Shown here in pieces: positions 4,310-64,000 of a stretch of DNA of 64,000 nucleotides. The translations under genes were made by a program, and so were the position numbers. The stretch is from Candidatus Cloacimonadales bacterium. GTDB taxonomy: Bacteria > Cloacimonadota > Cloacimonadia > Cloacimonadales > JAIOQZ01. The first letter of the stretch is position 1, and each line of letters opens with the position of its first letter. The stretch lies in NCBI GenBank assembly GCA_963665815.1, contig OY762463.1, forward strand, positions 3,488,001 to 3,552,000, read 5' to 3'. The notes under the pieces were generated by a model. It made no database searches. It saw only the letters and a program-made list of their open reading frames with translations, and was not told the DNA's origin.

Positions 4310-4406
4310 CAGATTTTTCCGTAAATATGGGCTTTTCAACAACAAAAATTGTCATTAATGGAAAATACTTCCTTTATGGTGTGATTTTTTTCTGAATCGA
4401 AATGAT

Positions 4407-4434
4407 TTGACTGTTTTTACTTATTGAATACAAT
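4407..4434 (+). promoter_or_regulatory. Sigma70-type promoter for the AMMECR1 gene
   Basis: TTGACT-N16-TACAAT. Confidence 0.6.
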
Positions 4435-4462
4435 TTAATCACTAAAGTACAATGAGGTTATA

Positions 4463-5017
4463 ATGATGAACTCTGATATAAAAAAAGATTTACTGAAACT
4501 TGCTCGATCAACAATTGAAAACTATCTGAGGACAGGTTCTAAATCTAATGCTGATTTTTCCGGAGATATTTTTAATGAACAACGTGCTGTTTTTGTGACT
4601 CTGACAAAGAATGATCAATTAAGAGGGTGTATTGGGCAGTTGGAAGCACGAACAACACTTAAGAGTGCAGTTATTGATATGGCAGTATCCGCAGCTTTTC
4701 ATGATACTAGATTTTCTCCGGTAACAATATCTGAACTTGCTGATATATCAATTGAAATTTCTGTTCTTACTCCAATGAAGAAGATCAAAGATTATAAAGA
4801 TGTCAGGTTGGGGATTGATGGTGTCGTAGTGCAGAACGGATATAGGGGAGGTGTATTTCTTCCTCAGGTTGCTACTGAGACTAACTGGGATCTTGATACT
4901 TTTTTGAAAGTGCTCTGTCAGCAGAAAGCAGGTTTGCATGCCGATGCTTATAAGGAAGATTCTACAGATATATTCGTTTTTCAAGTGGAGAAGTTTTCTG
5001 AGAAAGATTTTGCTTGA
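4463..5017 (+). CDS. AMMECR1-domain protein (AmmeMemoRadiSam protein A)
   Basis: VFVTL...LRGCIG, AAFHDTRF, IEISVLT, GVFLPQVATE. Confidence 0.92.
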   Translation: MMNSDIKKDLLKLARSTIENYLRTGSKSNADFSGDIFNEQRAVFVTLTKNDQLRGCIGQLEARTTLKSAVIDMAVSAAFHDTRFSPVTISELADISIEISVLTPMKKIKDYKDVRLGIDGVVVQNGYRGGVFLPQVATETNWDLDTFLKVLCQQKAGLHADAYKEDSTDIFVFQVEKFSEKDFA

Positions 5018-5232
5018 TTAGACTGATGGAGAATAACTAAGTTTCTATTTAACATTAATTTCTGGAAATTAGTTATCTGTTGATTGGTTATTGAGTACAT
5101 TTTAATTGCAAAAAAAATGATAAAATTGTTTGACATAAAAACGTAGTATCTTTTTTTTACACAACTGTAAGCGCAATCAAGTTATTTTATTACGCGGACC
5201 ATAGAGTGAAATTGTGATATTGTTTATAAATC

Positions 5233-5318
5233 GGAGGATTAGTTCTAATTGGTAAGACAGCGGTCTTGAAAACCGCCGGGCTTTGCCCTTGGGGGTTCGA
5301 GTCCCTCATCCTCCGCCA
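5233..5318 (+). tRNA. tRNA-Ser(TGA)
   Basis: GGAGGAT/ATCCTCC acceptor stem, anticodon arm GCGGT-CTTGAAA-ACCGC, long variable arm, GTTCGA, GCCA end. Confidence 0.95.
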
Positions 5319-5326
5319 TTTTATAG

Positions 5327-5418
5327 GGAGAGGTGGCCGAGTCGGCTTAAGGCGTACGCCTGCTAAGCGTATGAGGGTCAAAAGCTCTCCGTGGGTTCGA
5401 ATCCCACCCTCTCCGCCA
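5327..5418 (+). tRNA. tRNA-Ser(GCT)
   Basis: GGAGAGG/CCTCTCC acceptor stem, TACGC-CTGCTAA-GCGTA, long variable arm, GCCA end. Confidence 0.95.
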
Positions 5419-5454
5419 TAAAATTTTGTAAATAATAAATTATATATTATATAT

Positions 5455-5529
5455 TAGCCCGTAGCCAAGCGGTAAGGCAGCAGGTTTTGGTCCTGCCATT
5501 CAGGGGTTCGAATCCTCTCGGGCTAACCA
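5455..5529 (+). tRNA. tRNA-Gln(TTG)
   Basis: TAGCCCG/CGGGCTA acceptor stem (U1-A72), GCAGG-TTTTGGT-CCTGC, CCA end. Confidence 0.95.
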
Positions 5530-5536
5530 TACTTTT

Positions 5537-5562
5537 AACCAGCAGAAATGCTGGTTTTTTTT
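5537..5562 (+). terminator. Intrinsic terminator of the tRNA operon
   Basis: AACCAGCA-GAAA-TGCTGGTT followed by a T run. Confidence 0.9.
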
Positions 5563-5682
5563 ATGCTGTATAATGAGAATATTTCAATAAAAAGGTTTAA
5601 ATTACATAGAGTAAAATACTTGGCTTGAATATTATTTTGAAAAATGAATTAGCGCTTAAAACAAATTCAAAATGGAGTAAAA

Positions 5683-8139
5683 ATGACATTGAGGTTTACA
5701 TTTGTTGTGTTGTTAGCTATTCTCTGGAGTGGGGTTTCAGCGAGGAGTACGGGAACATTAACAGGTAAGGTCAAGGATGCTAAAAGTAACAAACCATTAC
5801 CCGGAGTAATTGTTTTTCTTGATGATGAGAAAGTTGCAGTTACGGAAAAAGAAGGCACATACATTATAAGGGATATTCCAATAGGTTCCCACAAGATTAC
5901 TTTTAAAAGAATGGGTTATAAAACAAGGGTAAAACCAAATATAGTTGTTAAGTCTGATTATACATTTGTGATAAACATTGAGATGGAAATTCAACCTATA
6001 GCTTTTCAGACGATTAATGTCAGTTCCAAGGAAGAATATTTTCGCGAAGTAAAATCTGCACCTGTGAGTTCCAAGACAATTGAGATAGAAGAAATAAGAT
6101 CACAACCATCAGGATCTTATGATGCACAGAGAGTTGTTCAGGCTTTGCCATCTGTACTGACTGTTACAGATCAGAGCAATGAGATCATAACAAGAGGTGG
6201 GGCAGCCGGAGAAAATCTTTTTGTTCTGGATAATCTTGAGATTATGAATCCTAACCATTTTGGTGAGACAAACAAAGGTGGTGGTCCAATCAGCATGATC
6301 GTCCCGGAATATATTAAAGAAATTGATTTTTATGCAGGAGCCTTTCCAGCCAAATATGGAGACAAGGCTTCCTCTGTAATGTCTGTAAAGACAAGAAACG
6401 GAAACAGGCATGAATATCAGACAAAACTGGATATGGGAAATGCAGGATATGGGGTTATGTCTGAAGGGCCTGTTCCCGGAGATAAAGGTTCATTTTTCCT
6501 TTCGTATCACAGGAGTTTTCTCAGTCTGATTAGTAAGAGCGTAGGATTGACATCTGTCCCTGAATATCAGTCATTTTTTGGTAAACAGATTATTAATATT
6601 GCACCTCGATACACTCTTACACTGCATCAATTGTGGGCAGATGATGAACAGGATGATGTAGAAGACAGAGATGAACTGGAAGAAGGAGACCAACCTGATG
6701 ATGAGGACTATGTAAGATGCGGCAGATATATATTTGGTGCTACACTCAAGAAGTCCTCAGACTGGGGATTGCAGAATTTTATTATCTCTTACAGTGATCA
6801 GCACTGGAAGGAAACTACAATAGATGTGGACTGGAAAGATGAAATAAACAGCAGAGATAACGAGAACTTTGTTTTTGAAAAAGAATCTGCAATGCATAAC
6901 AAAGAGAAGTTTTATAAAGCCAGGTATTCACTATATGTCCCTGACACAAAGATTGGAGATTGGGAAATTGGCTCTACTTTGAGTTTTGAAGATGTAAGTT
7001 CTGAGAAGTTTATGCGTCCGGAAACAAGTTATGTATATCATATGGAGGATGATCAAGTTGTTATTGATGATACATTGTATAACAATTATGGTGATGATAA
7101 TATCATGAAAGCAGAAGTGACCTCAAAGAAGCTTTCAGGTTATCTGCAATGGGAGAAAGCTGTTAAGTCTTTTGAACTGAATTGTGGATTGAGGGCAGAT
7201 TATTTTGAATACACCGGAGAAACTGTGTTTGCTCCAAGAATTGGTATAAAATGGCTCTACAGTGATATGACACAATTTTCCTTGGGCTATGGGAGACATT
7301 ATCAATTTCCCGGATACTACTATTTCACTGCTACATCATCAGAAGAAGATCCCATTGGTTATGAAACCAATAAAGATTTGAAAGCCAAATATACTGATCA
7401 GATAATAGCCGGAGTAAGCAGAACATTGATGGAAGATCTTAAACTATCATGTGAAGCATACTATAAGAAGTACGATAATGTTCCAATCAGGCACTCAGAT
7501 ACTACTACCGAACTCAAGGATCATGATTATTTCTTTCTGAATGAGGGTGAAGGATATGCCAGAGGTGTAGAGCTGTTTGTTCATAAGAAAGTTAAGAAAA
7601 ATTATTGGGGAACACTGAGCTATTCCTTATCAGAAGCAAAAGCCGTGGATCAGAGATATCCTGATGAAGATATTGAATATGATTGGGATTTTGATATAAG
7701 ACATTCTCTAACGTGTATACTTGGATATAAAATTGTCTCTATGGAGCATGAATGGTTCAATAATAATAGAAAATGGATGAAATATCTTTGGTGGACAGGT
7801 ATTATTCCCGGAGATGAAACAGAAATCTCGGCAAAGTTCAAATATTCCAGTGGAAGACCTTACACTAAGAAAGTATATGATAGTGTAAACAAGGAATGGG
7901 ATGTACCGGAAAACTTTGATTTTAATACAGAGAGATATCCCGACTATCAAAGACTGGATATTCACATTAAGAATATGTGGTTTTCAGGCAGATTCAATTT
8001 CAGTACATACTTTGAAATGGATAATGTCTTTGATCGCAAAAACATTTATCTATATAAGTATAAAGGTGAAACAGGTATCATCAAGAAGAAATACATGTTT
8101 TCAAGGACTATATTTGGAGGATTCATTATTGAATTTTAA
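5683..8139 (+). CDS. TonB-dependent receptor with N-terminal carboxypeptidase-regulatory-like domain
   Basis: Signal peptide; GTLTGKVKDAKSNKPLPG; plug motifs RGGAAGEN and GAFPAKYGDKASSV; NVFDRKN; C-terminal Phe. Confidence 0.9.
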   Translation: MTLRFTFVVLLAILWSGVSARSTGTLTGKVKDAKSNKPLPGVIVFLDDEKVAVTEKEGTYIIRDIPIGSHKITFKRMGYKTRVKPNIVVKSDYTFVINIEMEIQPIAFQTINVSSKEEYFREVKSAPVSSKTIEIEEIRSQPSGSYDAQRVVQALPSVLTVTDQSNEIITRGGAAGENLFVLDNLEIMNPNHFGETNKGGGPISMIVPEYIKEIDFYAGAFPAKYGDKASSVMSVKTRNGNRHEYQTKLDMGNAGYGVMSEGPVPGDKGSFFLSYHRSFLSLISKSVGLTSVPEYQSFFGKQIINIAPRYTLTLHQLWADDEQDDVEDRDELEEGDQPDDEDYVRCGRYIFGATLKKSSDWGLQNFIISYSDQHWKETTIDVDWKDEINSRDNENFVFEKESAMHNKEKFYKARYSLYVPDTKIGDWEIGSTLSFEDVSSEKFMRPETSYVYHMEDDQVVIDDTLYNNYGDDNIMKAEVTSKKLSGYLQWEKAVKSFELNCGLRADYFEYTGETVFAPRIGIKWLYSDMTQFSLGYGRHYQFPGYYYFTATSSEEDPIGYETNKDLKAKYTDQIIAGVSRTLMEDLKLSCEAYYKKYDNVPIRHSDTTTELKDHDYFFLNEGEGYARGVELFVHKKVKKNYWGTLSYSLSEAKAVDQRYPDEDIEYDWDFDIRHSLTCILGYKIVSMEHEWFNNNRKWMKYLWWTGIIPGDETEISAKFKYSSGRPYTKKVYDSVNKEWDVPENFDFNTERYPDYQRLDIHIKNMWFSGRFNFSTYFEMDNVFDRKNIYLYKYKGETGIIKKKYMFSRTIFGGFIIEF

Positions 8140-56123: not shown

Positions 56124-57055
56124 TTCAGGATATCTATAAACATGAATTTCATAATCCCGTTGTGACTATGGGGACATTTGATGGTGTTCATAAAGGACAT
56201 CAACATCTTCTTGAACAGGTAAAAATGCATGCTGACAAAATTAACGGAAATTCTATTGCAATTACTTATTATCATCATCCTCTTGAAACACTTAATAAAG
56301 TTACATTTCCTTATCTGCTCACAGAAAAATCCAGAAAAGAAGCACTACTGAAGTCCTATGGAATTGATAAAGTGTTTTTCCTTAACTTCACAAAAGAAAT
56401 GGCTGGAATGACTGCATATGACTTCCTGAGGGATATCCTGATCAAACATATTAATCCAAAAGTTATTGTTGCAGGTTATGACACTCACTTTGGATTGAAC
56501 AGAGAAGGCAATTACGATTTTTTGAAAAAACATGAAGCTGACTTTAACTACAATGCTGAAATAGTAGAACAGTTTTGTGTGAATAAGGAAGTCGCAAGCA
56601 GCAGTAATATAAGAGAGCATATAAGAACAGGGGATATGGAATCTGCCAAAGCTTTACTCGGACGTTACTATACTCTTGACGGTATTGTTGTTCATGGCAT
56701 GAGTCTGGGGCGTGAGCTTGGTTTCCCAACAATCAATATTCATCCTGAAGATGACATGAAACTGATCCCGCATACAGGTATCTATTTTACCAAAGTGAGA
56801 TTCTCAGATAAGGAATTCTTTGCTCTGGCAAACATTGGCTATTCTCCAACAATTAAACATACCGGAATAGTTGAACTCGAAGCTTATCTTCTTGATTTTT
56901 CAGGAGATCTTTATGATAAAAATGTTGAGATAAGTTTTTTGAAAAGACTCAGAGATGAAATTGAGTTTAAAAACCAGGATGAATTAATTGACCAGATTAA
57001 ACTTGATGTTGTTGAAGCAAGAAAGTTAATTGCTGAGATTAATCGTCATAACTGA
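56120..57055 (+). CDS. ribF: Riboflavin kinase/FAD synthetase
   Basis: GTFDGVHKGH, SSSNIR, GRELGFPTIN, DLYDK, LRDEIEF. Confidence 0.97.
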   Translation: MIQDIYKHEFHNPVVTMGTFDGVHKGHQHLLEQVKMHADKINGNSIAITYYHHPLETLNKVTFPYLLTEKSRKEALLKSYGIDKVFFLNFTKEMAGMTAYDFLRDILIKHINPKVIVAGYDTHFGLNREGNYDFLKKHEADFNYNAEIVEQFCVNKEVASSSNIREHIRTGDMESAKALLGRYYTLDGIVVHGMSLGRELGFPTINIHPEDDMKLIPHTGIYFTKVRFSDKEFFALANIGYSPTIKHTGIVELEAYLLDFSGDLYDKNVEISFLKRLRDEIEFKNQDELIDQIKLDVVEARKLIAEINRHN

Positions 57056-57347
57056 AAAAGAAAAGTACAGCTCCCCATAAACATTGCAGAAACGAATATT
57101 TTCTTCTACAATCTTTAAACATTCTATACATACCCCGAGGTGAATAAATATTCACATTGTTTTGTCTCTCAAGATTTATTTTACGCTGATAAATCTCTGT
57201 TCTCGTAGACCACTCAATAGCTCCATCTTCTCCATGTTTATAGGGAATATAACCTTGGTCAATATACGCTTTTTTTTCTGCCGGATTCATTCTTACATCT
57301 TTGGGGTCAAGAATAATTATATCATCATGTTTCTTCTGAGGAGACAT
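57039..57347 (-). CDS. Hypothetical protein
   Basis: 102-aa ORF with GGAG RBS and upstream TTGACA-N16-TACATT; 3' end overlaps ribF convergently. Confidence 0.6.
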   Translation of the reverse strand: MSPQKKHDDIIILDPKDVRMNPAEKKAYIDQGYIPYKHGEDGAIEWSTRTEIYQRKINLERQNNVNIYSPRGMYRMFKDCRRKYSFLQCLWGAVLFFFSYDD

Positions 57348-57496: not shown

Positions 57497-57526
57497 CAAA
57501 GAGTCCATCAAAATTCGATGGACTCT
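57497..57526 (-). terminator. Hairpin terminator after trxA
   Basis: AGAGTCCATC/GATGGACTCT 10-bp stem. Confidence 0.7.
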
Positions 57527-57553: not shown

Positions 57554-57901
57554 TTATAACAGTATGCTATCTATTGATGATTTTAGCTGTTCCTTAGGTA
57601 ACGCACCCATTGCCATCTGAGGTTTCCCTTCTTTAGGAATGAACAACAAAGATGGGATACTTCTTATTCCAAAAGCCCCGGCAAGTTCCTGCTGTTCCTC
57701 AGTATTTACCTTAAATATGTCGATTTTACCTTCATACTCCTGAGATAATTCCTCAAGTACAGGAGCTATCATTTTGCAAGGTCCGCACCAGTCTGCATAA
57801 AAATCGATTAAACATGGTTTTTCACCAATGAATTTCCAGTCTTCGCTATTCTCATAATCAAATATCTTTTTGATGAATGTTTCTTTTGTTAAGTGTTCCA
57901 T
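57554..57901 (-). CDS. trxA: Thioredoxin
   Basis: DFYADWCGPCK, IRSIP; no signal peptide. Confidence 0.95.
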   Translation of the reverse strand: MEHLTKETFIKKIFDYENSEDWKFIGEKPCLIDFYADWCGPCKMIAPVLEELSQEYEGKIDIFKVNTEEQQELAGAFGIRSIPSLLFIPKEGKPQMAMGALPKEQLKSSIDSILL

Positions 57902-57929
57902 GATTTCTCCTTAAATATCCTTTTTAAAG

Positions 57930-57957
57930 ATTATAACTCTAAACTTGATAATGTCAA
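57930..57957 (-). promoter_or_regulatory. Sigma70 promoter of trxA
   Basis: TTGACA-N16-TATAAT. Confidence 0.8.
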
Positions 57958-57989
57958 ATATTATTTTTAATAATTATAACTATTATTAA

Positions 57990-58979
57990 TTATCTGTCAC
58001 CTGTAAATCGAAAGAGTGCGCCGGATGTCTCTTCATTAATACCAAAAGCATATTTGTTTAACTGCTGTTGCACTGCTTCCAGCGGGAATCCTTTTTTCAC
58101 TGCAATAATAAATGAAGTACTGTTTAATTCTTCAATAACTACATCTTCTAAGGTTGACTCTGTGAATATAATAGAGTTTTCTAAATCCTTGAAGCTCACA
58201 GTGTCATTTATTGTTTTTATTTCGATGTTTCTACCAGTCTCTGCACTGAGCATTTTTTGCAGTTCCTTGAAATACCCCTGATTATCCTCAGCATATACAA
58301 GTATGTTTCGTTTCGTTTCAAAAACGCTGATTTGCTCAATATAATTCATAGGTGGAGCAGGATTAAAGTATTTCACAAGTCCTGTGATACCAAGAATTGT
58401 ATATATTACAGCAACGAGCAATGCGGCATATCTGGCGTATTTTTTGATAATGTGAATTTTGGTTAGTACGTTAACAAATGCGAGTGGGAGCAGGAAAAGT
58501 GATGTACTGATGAAAAATCCAAAGAAAAGAAGCATTCCATTAATCACACCTCCGATATCAAGTACACGTGAAAGAGCTATAAGGAATGACGGGCAGAAAT
58601 TTATCCCGGTCAGAATACCTAACAGAAAAGCGCTTTTGGAAATTTTGGCAATTTTCGGTACAGCACATTTTTTATGTTCATTGTGAGTTCTGTATGTTGT
58701 CAGCAAGAGATATGCAGAGAGCAATATGTAGGCTATTGACGTATACAATGATCTGTTTGTTCCGGAAATAACAGATCCGGTAAAACCTGCTAATGCTCCA
58801 AAAGTAAGGTATGAGAAAAATCTACCGGCGGAGATTTCTACAACAGCCATTATACTGCTGCTTATCTTTCTGTCTTCTGTCAGAAGGTAGGGAAGGTAAA
58901 TCGGTGCACAGGATGCAAGGCATGTTGCTCCTGTTGCAAAGCCGAAGAACAGTCCTTCAAATAATATTCCGAACTGCAT
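57990..58979 (-). CDS. DsbD_2/CcdA-like (TauE-superfamily) polytopic membrane protein with soluble C-terminal domain
   Basis: About six hydrophobic segments; TCLASCAP and GINFCP Cys motifs; GRFFSYLTFGALAG. Confidence 0.72.
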   Translation of the reverse strand: MQFGILFEGLFFGFATGATCLASCAPIYLPYLLTEDRKISSSIMAVVEISAGRFFSYLTFGALAGFTGSVISGTNRSLYTSIAYILLSAYLLLTTYRTHNEHKKCAVPKIAKISKSAFLLGILTGINFCPSFLIALSRVLDIGGVINGMLLFFGFFISTSLFLLPLAFVNVLTKIHIIKKYARYAALLVAVIYTILGITGLVKYFNPAPPMNYIEQISVFETKRNILVYAEDNQGYFKELQKMLSAETGRNIEIKTINDTVSFKDLENSIIFTESTLEDVVIEELNSTSFIIAVKKGFPLEAVQQQLNKYAFGINEETSGALFRFTGDR

Positions 58980-58984
58980 AATTT

Positions 58985-60115
58985 TTACCAGATATACAAG
59001 ATACTTACAGTATGAGTTTGTGTATCATCCAATTCAGAATAATTTTCCATACTGAAATTGTAGTTAAGGTAAGTGGAATTATTCAGAAATTTAAATCTTA
59101 AACCACCATGAAGCTCATTTTCAGTTTCAATGTTTACACCATAAAAGTATCTGTATTCAGTGTGAAGCGTTAGTAATGTTATGGGGTACTCAACTTTAAG
59201 CTTAATGTATCCCTGCTCATCTACAGTATAATACTTAGTACCTGCCTGAATAAGTGCCAGATCATTATCATCTGTATAGAACAGGTTTCGCTGCAGGATT
59301 GTTTCGATAAATGATGTTCCCCAGAGCAGTTCATCATCTTCCTTAATCATGCGAGTCTGGAATCTGTTTACGGAAAGCCAGTCCTGACTGAGCTTAAACA
59401 GATGTCTCACATTAAAATATCCATGGATTCTATTGTTTTCATAGCCATCTGAAACATCGTATATCGCCGAGACAGTGCTCTTGAGAAAATGCTGATGATT
59501 GAAGCTCAAGAAAAGCTCTGCTCCAAGCTCGTTCATAATATAGTTATAATCTGAGTTGTCATTTAAATCATTGAATGACTGAATACGGAAAAAAGGTTTC
59601 AGTTTCTCATGTTTAATGTACTGCATCTTCATGTCGATAAGCTGATCACTTTCTATATGTTCATCATTCTCAAGTGCAAGACGACGCATATCTAAGTTCA
59701 TATCCAAGCTGACAGTTTCTCTGAAATTACTGCTCAAGCTGAATCCGCCATACAATTGATTTTCCTGTTTCATTGCTTCAGGAATACCGCTGATATGGAT
59801 TTCCTTGTTATTATCAAAATAACCTTCTGCACCCACATAAGCGCTGAAAGAAAATATTTTGGAATATCTGGACAAAGCAACTGTGTTTTTCAGATAGTTA
59901 TTATAGTATGATCCATTAAATTCATCATTAGCATTGTATTTCAATAATGTAACATTACTAATATTAATGGATTTATATTTTAATTTTGCATAATTCTCAA
60001 CTCTCATGATAGAATCATCATTGTCAGAGGAGTTATATTCAATTTTCACCTGATTCTGAAACCCTGAAAGAAGGAATGGCATAATGATGATCAGTATTAT
60101 AAGTATTTTTCTCAT
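58985..60115 (-). CDS. Putative outer-membrane beta-barrel protein
   Basis: Signal peptide, alternating amphipathic strands rich in Tyr/Phe/Asn, C-terminal THTVSILYIW (BAM-type terminal aromatic). Confidence 0.7.
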   Translation of the reverse strand: MRKILIILIIIMPFLLSGFQNQVKIEYNSSDNDDSIMRVENYAKLKYKSINISNVTLLKYNANDEFNGSYYNNYLKNTVALSRYSKIFSFSAYVGAEGYFDNNKEIHISGIPEAMKQENQLYGGFSLSSNFRETVSLDMNLDMRRLALENDEHIESDQLIDMKMQYIKHEKLKPFFRIQSFNDLNDNSDYNYIMNELGAELFLSFNHQHFLKSTVSAIYDVSDGYENNRIHGYFNVRHLFKLSQDWLSVNRFQTRMIKEDDELLWGTSFIETILQRNLFYTDDNDLALIQAGTKYYTVDEQGYIKLKVEYPITLLTLHTEYRYFYGVNIETENELHGGLRFKFLNNSTYLNYNFSMENYSELDDTQTHTVSILYIW

Positions 60116-60357
60116 CTTATAGCCTCCTCAGGACATTTTGTCACACAATCACCGCATTGCTTGCATTTCGACTGGATTATTGAAGCTTTCCCGTTTGTAA
60201 TTACAATTGCATCATGGGGACAGGCATCTCTGCACTTTCCACAGGATATACATGCATCCTTGTCTATGGAATATTCAAATGATGTTGCTTTTTTACAACC
60301 TGCAAAAACAGCGAACACGAATGAAAGAGCTAAGAATATATAGAGGGCTTTTCTCAT
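60112..60357 (-). CDS. Lipoprotein 2x[4Fe-4S] ferredoxin
   Basis: MRKALYIFLALSFVFAVFAG-C lipobox; CISCGKCRDACP and CKQCGDCVTKCP; ATGA overlaps on both sides support start 60357. Confidence 0.88.
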   Translation of the reverse strand: MRKALYIFLALSFVFAVFAGCKKATSFEYSIDKDACISCGKCRDACPHDAIVITNGKASIIQSKCKQCGDCVTKCPEEAIR

Positions 60358-60599
60358 TTTATTGCTCCGAATGTACATGTTGTAAGACAGAGTTTACAGT
60401 TGATGCATTTCTCTGTGTCAATCACAGCTTTGCCTTCTGATACTGTTATTGCCTTTACCGGGCATACTGTCTGGCAGTCTCCACATCCGGCACAGTCTGA
60501 CTGTATAACGATCGGTTTTTTATCTTCAGATTTCGCATTACCTGCAAAAACGATGAAAACCAGAGAGAGTAAAAATATTATTATAAATGTTTTCTTCAT
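60354..60599 (-). CDS. Signal-peptide-bearing 2x[4Fe-4S] ferredoxin
   Basis: MKKTFIIIFLLSLVFIVFAGNA; CAGCGDCQTVCP and CINCKLCLTTC. Confidence 0.88.
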   Translation of the reverse strand: MKKTFIIIFLLSLVFIVFAGNAKSEDKKPIVIQSDCAGCGDCQTVCPVKAITVSEGKAVIDTEKCINCKLCLTTCTFGAIK

Positions 60600-60608
60600 A
60601 TTCCCTTC

Positions 60609-62819
60609 CTAATATACGTGAACACCAAGGTGAATAGCATTCCAGCCGCATCTGTTATAGCATGTACCACAAGCATCACATGCTGCCGTATCAATTGTCT
60701 TATAGTTTCCTACATCCGATATTGCATCTTCAGGGCAGAACCTGAGACAGCTGTTACAATCAGCACATTGATTCGGGTTTATGATGTATACAATCTTACC
60801 GGAAACAATATTTGATATTGATCCGTAATTGTTGCTGTCATCTATTGCTTTGATAGCTATGTAATAACGAGTTCCGTTTGAAATTCCATTTACATCGCAG
60901 GTTTGAGTTGTTCCTGCCGCACCTGGTGCCGGAGAACTGGAAAACGGACTTGCATTATCCCAGTTTGCATCTGTTATAGGTGATTGAGAATATCGAATAT
61001 CATAGCTTGCTGCAGTTCCTATATCAGCATCATCTCCGGGGGCAGTCCATGTAACACGTAATCTCCCGTTCAATGCAGCGGATGCCACGATTTGGAGATC
61101 GGTAATGGCTGACGGAGGAGTATCATCGGCTGTTAACTGACCTGATACAATGTTGGATATTCCACTGTAGTTTCCAGCTTCATCAAAAGCTTTAATACCG
61201 AAATAATACAGTGTTCCAACTTCTATGTCAGTTATCTCAAAACTTTCTTGATTACCATTTGCCTGCGGAGTCAAACTGCAGCTGACAGGATCGGCAGAAT
61301 CCCAGTTGGTAGAGTTCAGTTCTGTTGTAGATTTTTTTATCTCATATCCTTCACTTGTTCCAGTGTTACCATCATCACCTGTTGAAGTCCATGTGAGTTC
61401 CATGGAAGCAGGGAGCAGGCTCAGTTGCAAGTCAGTAATATCTGCAGGAGCAAGAGTGTCTGCCACTGTATCCGTAGTGAAAGATACAATATTAGATAAT
61501 CCGGATATGTTATCGGAGTCATCAATTGATTTGATACCTATATAGTATTCAGTATCTGATGTAAGATTTGTAATAAGAAGACTTTCATCAGATCCTGATT
61601 GTGATGGAACATAGTTATGGGGAAACTCTGTCAGGGAATCCCAGTTTTGATCGGTAATATCAGCTTCACTGACTTTTATGATGTATTCCGTAGCTGTCCC
61701 TGTATCACCATTATCTCCCGGAGCAGTCCAGATTATTCTGGCACTGGAAGCTGTAACCAATTCTGTTGCGAGGTCACTGACAGTTGACGGTGGAGTTACA
61801 TCTCCTGTGATAGATGCAACAGCAATATTGGATAGTTCAGATTCATTATCAGACTCATCTACAGCTTTTATGGCAAATTCAAAGCTGATTCCTACTTCAA
61901 GATCATCAATAACGAGGTTTTCAGATATTCCAGCGGTTTGTGGTGAAATAGAATTATTATATTCCTCAGCCAGATCCCAGTCAAAGGGGCTTGTTTGGGA
62001 ATATTTAATAATGTAATGATCCGCTGTTCCTGTCATATCATCATCACCGACAGCAGACCAACTCAGTTCTATTGATTCTTCATTTGATACAGCAGCAAGA
62101 TCGGATATAGCTGCAGGTGCTGTTTCATCAGTGATCAGTCCTGCTATGATGGTAGATCTTTCAACTTCTGTATTTTTATTGCCTGCTTCATCTTCAACTT
62201 GAAGTCTAACGGTTAAAAGGTAATCTGAATTAAGACTGTCAACAACCCATTCGACATGGGTGCCGCCCTGATAATAAGCGTATTCTGCACATGGAATTTC
62301 AACTTCTTCCATATCATCATATTCATCGTCATCAACGTCATCAACGTCATCATCATTGGCCCTTGTATCGGTCATATCATCGAGGTAGGCTGACAGTTTA
62401 TATTTATATGCATAACCTGTCATTCCATCATCTCCCGGAGCAGTAAAAGATATAACTGCTTCGTATGGATTTTCTGAAACAACTTTGAAGTCATTGATAT
62501 CTGCCGGTGCATTAATATCTTTTGCTGTTGTAAAAGCAACTGTACCATCACGACCTTCACAGTCAGCGAAGAGATCAATACATTTCATGCAGCTAATACA
62601 TTTGTCTTTATCAATGTAATATGCTCCGTTTTCATCATCGAGAAGAATGGCATTCTCCGGACATTCAAACATCGTTGTACAATTACCACATTGAGTACAA
62701 TCGGAATATTCAATTCTTGGCTGATTGTTATTTCCGGTGTTTTTATTCACTTTATCAGCACAGAAAAACAGCAGGAATGATACAGCAAGAATTGCTATTA
62801 TCTTAATAGTTTTGATCAT
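60609..62819 (-). CDS. Exported (probable lipoprotein) ferredoxin-(FN3-like)x5-ferredoxin protein
   Basis: Signal peptide ending FFC; N-terminal CTQCGNC/CISCMKC; five repeats with (T/A)P..I.DL...WTAPGDDG..GTA..Y.IK...IKA.D...N.S..SN; C-terminal CADCNSCLRFCP/CDACGTCYNRC. Confidence 0.85.
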   Translation of the reverse strand: MIKTIKIIAILAVSFLLFFCADKVNKNTGNNNQPRIEYSDCTQCGNCTTMFECPENAILLDDENGAYYIDKDKCISCMKCIDLFADCEGRDGTVAFTTAKDINAPADINDFKVVSENPYEAVISFTAPGDDGMTGYAYKYKLSAYLDDMTDTRANDDDVDDVDDDEYDDMEEVEIPCAEYAYYQGGTHVEWVVDSLNSDYLLTVRLQVEDEAGNKNTEVERSTIIAGLITDETAPAAISDLAAVSNEESIELSWSAVGDDDMTGTADHYIIKYSQTSPFDWDLAEEYNNSISPQTAGISENLVIDDLEVGISFEFAIKAVDESDNESELSNIAVASITGDVTPPSTVSDLATELVTASSARIIWTAPGDNGDTGTATEYIIKVSEADITDQNWDSLTEFPHNYVPSQSGSDESLLITNLTSDTEYYIGIKSIDDSDNISGLSNIVSFTTDTVADTLAPADITDLQLSLLPASMELTWTSTGDDGNTGTSEGYEIKKSTTELNSTNWDSADPVSCSLTPQANGNQESFEITDIEVGTLYYFGIKAFDEAGNYSGISNIVSGQLTADDTPPSAITDLQIVASAALNGRLRVTWTAPGDDADIGTAASYDIRYSQSPITDANWDNASPFSSSPAPGAAGTTQTCDVNGISNGTRYYIAIKAIDDSNNYGSISNIVSGKIVYIINPNQCADCNSCLRFCPEDAISDVGNYKTIDTAACDACGTCYNRCGWNAIHLGVHVY

Positions 62820-62831
62820 GAAATAACCTTA

Positions 62832-63542
62832 TTATTTATTTTCTTTTTTCTCAATAACTTTCACAGGACATGCTTTTTCACAAATTCCGCAATCAATGCA
62901 TTTTTCCTGGTCAATTACAGCTTTGCCTTTTTTCATTTCAATGGCACCAACAGGGCATTTTTTTACACAAATTTTACATCCAATACATTCTTTAGCATTT
63001 ACAGAATAGACAATCTTGTCTTTGGGATTTGCAACTTTTGCTTCAGCTTTATCAGCTTCCGGTGCATTCTGGCATGGATGGGTTCCACATGGTGTGTGTT
63101 GTGGTTTATGTGCATCTTTAACTGCTTTGTATTTTTCAGATCGTTTTTTTTGTTTTTCTGTTTCTTCATTGAAAGTTTTTACTTTTGGTTTAATTTTTTT
63201 TGCTTCCAGAAGTTTGTCTGTTGTAAATTCCTTAGATTTATGAGTCGTAACAGTTGCTTTGTCTTCAGTTATTTTTTTGAGGTCAACTGCTTCGGATTTT
63301 GCTTTTGATTTAACAATAGCATTTATGGGGCATTTATTAACACAAATTCCGCATCCAATACATTTATCTTTGTCTATAACAGCTTTCCCGTCTACCATTT
63401 TAATTGCATCAACAGGACAATCTTTTATGCAAAGTTTACATCCTATACAGTCATCTTTCTTCACTTCATATTTGGTTTTTACAGTTGCGAAAACTGCAAA
63501 TGTCAGTACTAACATTAAAGCAATGGTAAGTAGTTTCTTCAT
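62832..63542 (-). CDS. Signal-peptide-bearing protein with two 2x[4Fe-4S] ferredoxin domains and a Lys-rich linker
   Basis: Start ATG 63542 (AGGAG RBS) MKKLLTIALMLVLTFAVFA; four CxxCxxCxxxCP motifs. Confidence 0.88.
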   Translation of the reverse strand: MKKLLTIALMLVLTFAVFATVKTKYEVKKDDCIGCKLCIKDCPVDAIKMVDGKAVIDKDKCIGCGICVNKCPINAIVKSKAKSEAVDLKKITEDKATVTTHKSKEFTTDKLLEAKKIKPKVKTFNEETEKQKKRSEKYKAVKDAHKPQHTPCGTHPCQNAPEADKAEAKVANPKDKIVYSVNAKECIGCKICVKKCPVGAIEMKKGKAVIDQEKCIDCGICEKACPVKVIEKKENK

Positions 63543-63571
63543 TTTTTTTATCTCCTGAAAAAATATATTAT

Positions 63572-63596
63572 TTATGTTTGTCAAAAACAAGCATAA
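63572..63596. promoter_or_regulatory. Inverted repeat (candidate operator) in the divergent promoter region
   Basis: TTATGTTTGT-CAAAA-ACAAGCATAA (9/10 arm match) overlapping a minus-strand TTGACA at 63579-63584. Confidence 0.5.
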
Positions 63597-63640
63597 TATT
63601 AAATAATGGCAAGTAAAAGTTAGAGTAAATGGAGTGCGAA

Positions 63641-64000
63641 ATGAAAAAGCATAAATCACGTTATATCATTCAGTTTTTGTTTCTTGCTGTCTCAATGTTT
63701 ATCAATGTACTAATGATCACTGAGAAGCTTGGAGTAGCTCATGAATTCTGCCCGTTTTCTGCTGTCTGTTTCGGGTTATTTGTTTTACATCCTGCAGTAA
63801 CAGACTGGATTTTCGGAGTTTCAATTACAGTTTCTATTATAATTATTTTATCTGCAATTCCTTTCAGAAGGGTTTTCTGTGGATATGTATGCCCAATAGG
63901 CACAATACAGGAATATGTGTTTGCTTTTTTCAAGTTTAATAAGAAATGTGGAAGAAGGATTCCGGAAAAAATGCATAAAGCATTGTTATGGTTGAAGTAT
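63641..64000 (+). CDS. NapH/YccM-like membrane-bound 4Fe-4S binding protein (5' part; runs off the window)
   Basis: Manual translation MKKHKSRYIIQFLFLAV...HEFCPFSAVC...RRVFCGYVCPIGTIQE...LLWLKY, open to the window end; GGAG RBS. Confidence 0.88.
   Translation, partial: MKKHKSRYIIQFLFLAVSMFINVLMITEKLGVAHEFCPFSAVCFGLFVLHPAVTDWIFGVSITVSIIIILSAIPFRRVFCGYVCPIGTIQEYVFAFFKFNKKCGRRIPEKMHKALLWLKY

Follow-up and report, generated by a model that had tools for sequence, protein, structure and literature searches.

We examined a gene cluster at the end of a 64,000-nucleotide stretch of DNA from a Candidatus Cloacimonadales bacterium (contig OY762463.1; the whole stretch is called the window here), which corresponds to positions 3,488,001-3,552,000 of a genome that is assembled as one contig (3,963,599 bases) and rated 98.66% complete. 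Six genes on the minus strand encode, in the order in which they are read, Fd4, a tetra-motif ferredoxin of 237 amino acids (aa) (62832-63545 from its MKKLL start; the open reading frame, ORF, extends to 63659); FdFN3, a ferredoxin-FN3-ferredoxin protein of 736 aa (60609-62819); FdS, a soluble exported 2x[4Fe-4S] ferredoxin of 81 aa (60354-60599); FdL, a lipoprotein ferredoxin whose ORF spans 60112-60378 and whose likely true start is at 60357 (MRKAL..., giving 81 aa at 60112..60357); a predicted outer-membrane barrel of 376 aa (58985-60115); and a DsbD_2-family inner-membrane protein of 329 aa (57990-58979). The spacings along this run, read directly, are 12 nt, 9 nt, ATGA, ATGA and 5 nt. An 88-nt gap separates the DsbD_2 gene from a thioredoxin gene, and on the other side a gene for a NapH-like membrane polyferredoxin of 266 aa, divergent from the Fd4 gene, starts at 63629 on the plus strand and runs past the window end (3551629-3552429 of the genome in full).

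Fer4 families of Pfam matched all four ferredoxin proteins, which together hold 12 CxxCxxC motifs, and CxxCH was absent from the nine proteins checked. An earlier, sequence-only reading of this DNA had listed the same genes, spacings and motif counts, and had proposed that they form a haem-free electron conduit across the envelope; the ORF list, the Pfam matches and the motif counts bear out this inventory. That reading had also allowed that a neighbouring catalytic subunit might explain the ferredoxins as part of a known complex, and we found none within 13 kb beyond the window, nor any recurring beside the cluster in other loci. Past the NapH-like ORF, an exported DUF1573-rhodanese protein is encoded first, and then a radical SAM protein of the B12 type, a nucleotidyl transferase, a transporter and a chemoreceptor.

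A sister genome (G001) carries the same cluster with 72-92% protein identity. Among sequencing runs, four from a single study contain this DNA, and no RNA run containing it was listed. In the loci of eight relatives, the FN3 protein, FdS, FdL and the barrel were present in 8/8 and a separate Fd4-like protein in 6/8, with the DsbD_2 gene adjacent in 5/8 and the NapH-like gene in 3/8. A scan with a DsbD_2 alignment, taking one genome per species, yielded 99 relatives and 80 loci that were kept, of which 76 are labelled as Cloacimonadota-type (including Tenebribacter and Zophobacter), two as "uncultured bacterium", one as Armatimonadota and one as Delongbacteria. The order FdS, FdL, barrel-size ORF, DsbD_2 was intact in 54 of these 80 (the core loci), and the remaining 26 include loci cut by contig ends and loci with other arrangements. 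A profile of the barrel found 40 ORFs in its first round and 64 after three iterations, by which point it covered 54/54 core loci; all of the core barrel ORFs belong to one family. The co-conservation on which the sequence-only reading had staked its proposal is therefore seen both in the gene order and in the barrel profile, and such conservation across genomes shows that the predicted ORFs of the cluster are real genes and not chance ORFs.

Across 232 genomes of the phylum, the DsbD_2 profile had a match in 93 (61 of 151 high-quality genomes; 38 of 66 genera), in a single copy per genome bar one split match, and it had no match in the 21, 23 and 24 genomes of three large genera with small genomes. 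Judged by this sequence marker, the system is a widespread yet accessory trait. Just upstream of the cluster, one locus (L076) carries a gene for a heavy-metal P-type ATPase with two HMA domains (4312-6774, plus strand), and ORFs of 728-824 aa stand at the same position in three related loci (L079, L080 and L088).

Exported ferredoxins and their proposed surface display

In the ferredoxin modules, two CxxCxxCxxxC(P) motifs lie within about 55 residues, as is characteristic of clostridial-type 2x[4Fe-4S] ferredoxins, and cluster binding is predicted on this basis. By sequence, the nearest solved relatives of these modules are the polyferredoxins FwdF and MvhB, as well as RnfB (matches include 5t5i_F, the FwdF chain, at E 6e-26 and 9sw6_G at E 1.7e-24).

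Fd4 contains two 2x[4Fe-4S] domains with four CxxCxxCxxxCP motifs and a Lys/Glu-rich linker between the domains; its Fer4 match amounted to 105 bits over four stretches, and its CxxCxxC motifs begin at residues 33, 62, 187 and 216. The N-terminus, MKKLLTIALMLVLTFAVFA|T, is of the Sec type without RR, and the homologues in six of the eight relatives' loci occupy the same position. We regard Fd4 as a candidate periplasmic electron carrier and a NapG-like partner of the product of the divergent NapH-like gene. FdS is a candidate periplasmic shuttle: all eight of its cluster cysteines were invariant in 54 sequences, Pfam Fer4 families matched it, and its signal is of the Sec type, with RR within the first 15 residues in only 3/54 orthologues and not conserved. 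The cysteine of the FdL lipobox (FAG|C) was invariant in 55/55 sequences, in which seven of the cluster cysteines were likewise invariant and the eighth was kept in at least 90%; RR within the first 15 residues was again not conserved (4/54 sequences).

In FdFN3, Cys20 is followed by a dicluster ferredoxin domain of variant type and an insert rich in Asp and Glu; then come five FN3-like repeats and, at the C-terminus, a canonical dicluster ferredoxin domain. Pfam gave an fn3 match of 92 bits, with matches to Fer4 families at either end of the protein. Residues 104, 234, 343, 457 and 568 mark the starts of the repeats, each of which opens with (A/P)P(A/S)x(I/V)xD(L/F). Cys20, which the sequence-only reading had not mentioned, is a lipobox-like cysteine that follows a hydrophobic stretch. 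A cysteine in this setting was present in 25 of 29 orthologous ORFs, the other four having N-termini that were cut or uncaptured, and most orthologues carried the motif C-[TSA]-D there. The conserved Asp two residues past the cysteine presumably recalls the lipoprotein export signal of Bacteroidota, and FdFN3 is a candidate for a surface-displayed terminal ferredoxin on a tether.

Because these signals are of the Sec type, and Sec moves unfolded chains, the ferredoxins are predicted to be exported unfolded. TatC was not found in this genome by a search that matched 11 of 14 control genomes. In the phylum it was found in 9/232 genomes (8 above the family cut-off), scattered over seven genera, and only three of the 93 genomes with the DsbD_2 marker were among these nine (G146, G174 and, weakly, G171), so that the phylum seems to be largely without the Tat pathway. 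Whether the ferredoxin domains face outward or toward the cytoplasm had been left by the sequence-only reading as a point on which its proposal could fail. The lipobox of FdL in all 55 sequences, the Sec signals on FdS and a type IX secretion tail in 12/54 core loci speak for the former, and the putative route of export of the ferredoxin domains is Sec. That reading missed the main biochemical problem that this raises, namely that the signals are of the Sec type in a genome in which no TatC was found.

The position upstream of FdS is a slot that is filled in more than one way. It held an FN3-stalk lipoprotein ferredoxin in 29/54 core loci (595-1720 aa where uncut by contig ends) and, in 12/54, a ferredoxin of about 180 aa that carries a sorting domain for type IX secretion; another ferredoxin stood there in 5/54 and a non-ferredoxin in 7/54, and in 1/54 the slot was cut by a contig end. 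In two of these type IX ferredoxins the sorting domain was confirmed by Pfam (Por_Secre_tail, cut-off 27), with 58 bits for L022:7844-8380 and 28.9 bits for L076:7750-8286. These lipid anchors and sorting domains suggest that the slot ferredoxins would be displayed at the surface. Of our arguments for a chain that ends outside the cell, the alternation of two different surface devices in one slot is the strongest.

A type IX ferredoxin is also encoded in this genome outside the cluster (2718600-2719379, plus strand; L098:8600-9379). Its signal peptide is followed by a dicluster ferredoxin domain, then by CarboxypepD_reg and a type IX sorting domain (Por_Secre_tail, 28.5 bits against the same cut-off of 27), and the SprA translocon (SprA_N) is encoded in the same genome. 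In a word-index search for secreted ferredoxins, 9 proteins were found at E<=1e-5; the best three, this protein among them, combined a ferredoxin with a type IX tail, and the other six matched no ferredoxin family. Its gene adjoins those of two small type IX-tailed proteins and of an ECF sigma/anti-sigma pair.

The barrel and the inner-membrane proteins

An AlphaFold2 model of the 376-aa protein, built from an alignment with 22 of 24 family representatives, was all-beta with about 20 long strands (pLDDT 88.6, pTM 0.77). In Foldseek the model matched OccK/OprD porins, the barrels of TonB-dependent transporters and MtrB (E 7e-8 to 5e-6), and in VIA-align, which compared it with 48,161 chains, it matched FptA with a Z of 17.0 over 336 residues, BtuB with a Z of 16.7 and MtrB (6r2q_B) with a Z of 15.5 over 327 residues. 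The transporters aligned to the 376-aa protein by their barrel part alone. The protein has no room for a plug, and Pfam assigned it no family and, in particular, no Plug, TonB_dep_Rec or Lpt family. It lacks cysteine, and its C-terminus reads ...ILYIW, an ending of a kind that is often seen in outer-membrane proteins. The sequence-only reading had predicted an outer-membrane barrel, and the model agrees with this, showing a barrel with about 20 strands and without a plug. Its family is small: the full HMMER search gave 24 representatives at E<=0.001 among 1.84 billion, a word-index protein search returned only three close proteins, and a look-up in the ESM Atlas led to unnamed clusters.

FdL is a candidate partner of this barrel. 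The stop codon of its gene overlaps the start codon of the barrel gene (ATGA, read directly), a coupling that is suggestive only. A complex prediction for barrel residues 19-376 with mature FdL (residues 21-81) reached 0.01 against a mark of 0.32, with the fold of FdL itself uncertain in that prediction, and so speaks neither for nor against binding.

The DsbD_2 protein matched its Pfam family with 69.2 bits (cut-off 24.9). Its AlphaFold2 model (pLDDT 83.1) comprised six long helices and a cysteine-free alpha/beta C-terminal domain (residues 213-329), and four of its cysteines did not vary among 59 sequences, namely C20 and C24 (both in helix 1), C105 (in a Lys-rich loop) and C129 (in helix 4, followed by P130). 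By the positive-inside rule, the Lys-rich loop (residues 96-117) argues that C105 would face the cytoplasm and the C-terminal domain the periplasm. The model had no Foldseek match at E<=0.001, and its profile gave noise only against solved structures by sequence. The VIA-align matches were middling and in a range common for helical bundles (RnfA 8ahx_A, Z 8.1; NqrE 7xk3_E, Z 7.8, 155 residues), so that an intramembrane Fe-S centre like that of Rnf or Nqr is only an idea; for the C-terminal domain the matches, equally middling, were to CheY-like or NAD-kinase-like folds (Z 7.2-7.8). In the ESM Atlas the protein falls in a cluster of 248 proteins, of which the commonest known phylum is Cloacimonadota.

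Two further observations bear on what the DsbD_2 protein might serve. No multihaem cytochrome was found in the genome, where only two ORF segments of at least 80 aa reach two CxxCH motifs and none has more, and for this reason cytochrome c maturation cannot be the task of the protein. In four loci (L041, L044, L060 and L085) the DsbD_2 gene stands with NapH-like genes, polyferredoxin genes or both and no barrel, a pairing that ties the protein to exported ferredoxins rather than to the barrel. One family has a longer DsbD_2 protein of 426-458 aa (six copies, among them L016:11029-12405 and L015:11006-12286, with others in L035, L037 and L091), in which the C-terminal domain is duplicated and the linker has extra cysteines (GCP...C..C). 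In three of the genomes with this long form the gene lies far from the ferredoxin-barrel cluster, beside a gene of 1786-1788 aa whose copy in L035 encodes a NosD/beta-helix protein.

The NapH-like protein matched Fer4_5 of Pfam with 60.3 bits in two stretches (cut-off 22) and the NapH family of NCBIfam (TIGR02163) with only 17.5 bits against a cut-off of 213.05; it had no match among solved structures by sequence. Fourteen cysteines were kept in all of the 24-25 aligned orthologues. Some of these form two CX3CP motifs, others belong to a C-terminal ferredoxin domain, and three lie in loops for which an outward orientation is predicted. We consider it a candidate inner-membrane electron entry point. 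The sequence-only reading had noted its gene as divergent from the cluster. The gene occurred in 176/232 phylum genomes, compared with 93/232 for the DsbD_2 protein, and adjoined the cluster in 14/54 core loci, and it is thus not specific to the system. In all three of the inspected loci from genera without a DsbD_2 profile match (L099-L101), the next gene encodes a polyferredoxin of about 185-224 aa that has a hydrophobic segment at its N-terminus. An exported protein with DUF1573 and rhodanese domains is encoded next to the NapH-like gene here (3552510-3553307, minus strand; L001:7511-8308). This neighbour is kept in the sister genome and in none of the other seven relatives' loci (1/8), and an exported sulfurtransferase of this kind could bear on the supply of sulfur for clusters.

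A role of the NapH-like protein as a quinol dehydrogenase was considered and is doubted, MenA not having been found in the genome by TIGR00751 in a search that did not extend to other quinone routes. A protein of 515 aa encoded elsewhere in the genome (2292048-2293595, minus strand; L102:4049-5596) joins a NapH-like Fer4_5 domain to a ferredoxin, FAD_binding_6 and NAD_binding_1, and would thereby serve as a membrane module that takes electrons from NAD(P)H on the cytoplasmic side. As no MenA was found and this second Fer4_5 domain is fused to FAD- and NAD-binding domains, we expect the donor of the NapH-like protein to be a cytoplasmic reductant and not quinol.

The thioredoxin (57554-57901, minus strand; 115 aa, WCGPC, no signal peptide) matched Thioredoxin of Pfam with 96.1 bits and TIGR01068 of NCBIfam with 112.8 bits (cut-off 96.8). 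Its gene was rejected as a conserved member of the system. It does lie beside the cluster here, as the sequence-only reading had said, but it adjoined the DsbD_2 gene in only 1/54 core loci and 1/8 relatives' loci. A sigma-70-like site that matches at 12 of 12 positions (TTGACA-16-TATAAT; 57957-57930, minus strand) is located in the 88-nt gap upstream of the gene, and a terminator-like hairpin of 12 pairs (57500-57526) follows it. The thioredoxin gene is probably a bystander in a separate transcription unit. Downstream of it lies an ORF of 102 aa (MSPQKKHDD...; 57039-57347, minus strand), which has a counterpart in the sister genome (L010:12857-13240).

A proposed electron path and its rivals

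The nearness of the ferredoxin modules to the electron-wire polyferredoxins FwdF and MvhB and to RnfB favours an electron path, and our reading, inferred from sequence as far as function is concerned, is that the cluster encodes a [4Fe-4S] electron path across the envelope of a fermenting bacterium, a path in which the DsbD_2 protein supports the loading of clusters outside the cytoplasm. We hold this reading tentatively, at a little under an even chance. In such a path, a cytoplasmic reductant would load the C-terminal Fe-S domain of the NapH-like membrane protein, from which electrons would pass to the exported Fd4 and the soluble FdS in the periplasm and from these to the lipoprotein FdL, which is translationally coupled to the plug-less barrel and is proposed to occupy or cap it. 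The exit would be a surface ferredoxin, which in this genome would be the FN3-stalk lipoprotein, its distal ferredoxin serving as a tethered shuttle, and in other lineages a type IX-secreted ferredoxin. Extracellular sulfur, iron, humic compounds or partner cells would be likely acceptors. As the ferredoxins would cross the inner membrane unfolded by Sec, their clusters would have to be loaded outside the cytoplasm, and the DsbD_2 protein would be a dedicated support factor that keeps their cysteines reduced, as CcdA does for apocytochromes c; alternatively, it might itself carry electrons. The fuller proposition, that Sec-exported ferredoxins are loaded outside with the help of a dedicated DsbD_2-type protein and form a low-potential wire through a ferredoxin-filled barrel to ferredoxins at the surface, we consider possible rather than probable.

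The proposal of the sequence-only reading is therefore supported in part. Its composition, its barrel, the export of its ferredoxins and its conservation hold, electron transfer itself and a ferredoxin inside the barrel remain proposals, the thioredoxin is no conserved member and the NapH-like gene is not specific to the system. The FN3 stalk cannot, on its predicted architecture, conduct electrons, and the two ferredoxin domains of FdFN3, at least five FN3 units apart, could not be wired together, which is why the distal ferredoxin could serve only as a tethered shuttle.

This last point is one of several that count against a trans-envelope path. Another is the electron donor, as most clusters encode no obvious inner-membrane donor besides the DsbD_2 protein, and in the DsbD_2 family electrons move by thiol-disulfide exchange, the potential of which is higher than that of ferredoxins of this type. 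The NapH-like gene adjoins the cluster in no more than the 14 core loci given above, and is found in 17/21, 17/23 and 19/24 genomes of the three genera that have no DsbD_2 profile match. The system itself was not found, by the DsbD_2 profile, in 139/232 genomes of the phylum, and the seven core loci with a non-ferredoxin in the slot upstream of FdS would lack the exit proposed here. The loading of clusters presents the main biochemical objection. Sec signals together with the rarity of TatC mean that the model needs an undescribed loading of clusters outside the cytoplasm; to our knowledge, every Fe-S protein whose export has been studied leaves the cytoplasm in the folded state by way of Tat, and we know of no precedent for Fe-S cluster loading outside the cytoplasm.

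In the alternative that best withstands these data, a NapGH-like chain confined to the periplasm would pass its electrons to a small substrate, for example polysulfide, elemental sulfur or a metalloid. The barrel would be no more than the channel by which this substrate enters, and no electrons would cross the outer membrane. A plug-less, porin-like barrel model accords with such a role, and so does the widespread occurrence of a NapH-like protein (176/232 genomes) and of its pairing with a signal-bearing polyferredoxin in the absence of the barrel and the DsbD_2 protein (L099-L101). This alternative leaves without a role, however, the surface-display device (type IX tail or FN3 lipoprotein) that occurs in 41/54 core loci; no reductase is encoded near the cluster, and the translational coupling of the FdL gene to the barrel gene also speaks against it. 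The exported DUF1573-rhodanese protein beside the NapH-like gene in this and the sister genome might be taken to favour it, but that neighbour is kept in only one of the eight relatives' loci. We consider a periplasmic reductase chain unlikely.

It is also conceivable that the exported proteins capture Fe-S clusters or metals, with apo-ferredoxins binding these from a sulfidic medium and passing them inward by way of the barrel and the DsbD_2 protein acting as the importer. As the Sec signals and the failure to find TatC imply, the proteins must leave the cytoplasm as apo-proteins, and the four invariant cysteines of the DsbD_2 protein lie within or near the membrane, in a family that presumably shares its Pfam clan with metal transporters. 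The heavy-metal P-type ATPase gene upstream of the cluster in L076 would also fit. On the other side, the nearest relatives of the ferredoxins are electron-wire polyferredoxins, a NapH-like membrane polyferredoxin accompanies the cluster in 14/54 loci, and the cluster encodes neither a TonB box or plug nor a protease or an ABC importer. In dicluster ferredoxins of the clostridial type the clusters are tightly bound, and these proteins are not known to act as cluster donors. Iron uptake based on ferredoxin does exist in Pectobacterium, in the form of the Fus system (PMC6793856). Capture of this kind is, in our judgement, distinctly unlikely for the cluster studied here.

A thiol or redox buffer of the envelope, or a trap for oxygen or oxidants, in which cysteine-rich modules kept reduced by the DsbD_2 protein would protect a strict anaerobe with no directed path, is very improbable: the only inner-membrane component that is never missing is a reductant exporter of the DsbD/CcdA type, each protein has 8 to 20 cysteines and a cytoplasmic thioredoxin gene adjoins the cluster in this genome, but the strictly kept CxxCxxCxxxC(P) pairs are specific to [4Fe-4S] binding and not to generic thiols, neither a dedicated barrel nor surface-display devices would be needed, and the thioredoxin gene is adjacent in only 1/54 loci.

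Comparison with known systems

Full-text literature searches turned up no account of a barrel associated with ferredoxins that are exported by Sec or lie at the surface, and the matching passages of two Cloacimonadota genomics papers (PMC7382037, PMC8542988) do not mention the cluster. Even if its function should differ from the one proposed here, it is a conserved envelope system with no described counterpart. If an electron path of [4Fe-4S] clusters is indeed what it encodes, extracellular and interspecies electron transfer would not need cytochromes, and uncultured fermenters that have been scored as unable to respire minerals or to feed partners directly would need to be re-examined. Such a path could work near the potential of ferredoxin, a point of relevance for syntrophy with methanogens. 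The rule by which Fe-S proteins exit the cytoplasm only when folded and through Tat would be broken as well, in a phylum in which TatC was found in only 9/232 genomes in contrast to 93/232 for the DsbD_2 marker. The system would then be a new class of extracellular electron transfer as well as the first case of maturation of Fe-S proteins outside the cytoplasm.

The arrangement recalls the porin-cytochrome conduits (MtrCAB of Shewanella, PDB 6R2Q; PioAB/MtoAB; Pcc of Geobacter), in which the gene for a redox protein likewise lies directly upstream of a large barrel gene, and with which the cluster shares a predicted periplasmic carrier and a predicted lipid-anchored redox protein, here with a proposed surface position. 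Unlike those conduits it has no haem (no CxxCH in the cluster), its cofactors would be [4Fe-4S] clusters whose loading would need a route unknown for Fe-S proteins, and its inner-membrane partners are NapH-like and DsbD_2-like proteins and not of the CymA or Cbc type. Its barrel has about 20 strands and belongs to no sequence family, whereas MtrB has 26 strands. The cluster is not a member of the porin-cytochrome family even if it works alike, since no component is homologous and haem is missing.

The membrane side resembles NapGH, MauMN and NosGH, in which an exported ferredoxin with four clusters likewise has as its partner a membrane protein of four helices that bears two CX3CP motifs and, at its C-terminus, a ferredoxin domain. 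In contrast to NapGH, the membrane protein stays far below the cut-off of the NapH family of NCBIfam and the signal of Fd4 is of the Sec type, whereas NapG-type proteins use Tat signals; neither TatC nor MenA was found, and there is no nitrate reductase or cytochrome partner. As in CcdA and DsbD, a six-helix protein of the DsbD_2 family has conserved cysteines in helices 1 and 4, and, as in that pathway, it is encoded with exported proteins whose many cysteines need reduction for a cofactor. The protein of the cluster differs from CcdA and DsbD in its additional invariant C24 and C105 and its cysteine-free C-terminal domain, in the lack of a periplasmic thioredoxin-like gene in the cluster, and in belonging to a genome in which no c-type cytochromes were found.

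Among outer-membrane systems, TonB-dependent transporters share a large barrel with the cluster, and barrels of 22 strands gave the best structural matches, but the barrel described here has neither a plug nor a TonB family and fills all 376 aa. The coupling of the barrel gene to the gene of a small lipoprotein recalls LptD-LptE, in which LptE plugs LptD; a position of FdL inside its barrel is only a proposal. The ferredoxin modules themselves compare most closely with FwdF and MvhB of methanogens and with RnfB, their closest solved relatives, in which chains of [4Fe-4S] clusters act as electron wires. Those proteins are cytoplasmic and form part of enzyme complexes, whereas the modules of the cluster are single or paired, are provided with export, lipid-anchor or secretion signals, and have no enzyme partner.

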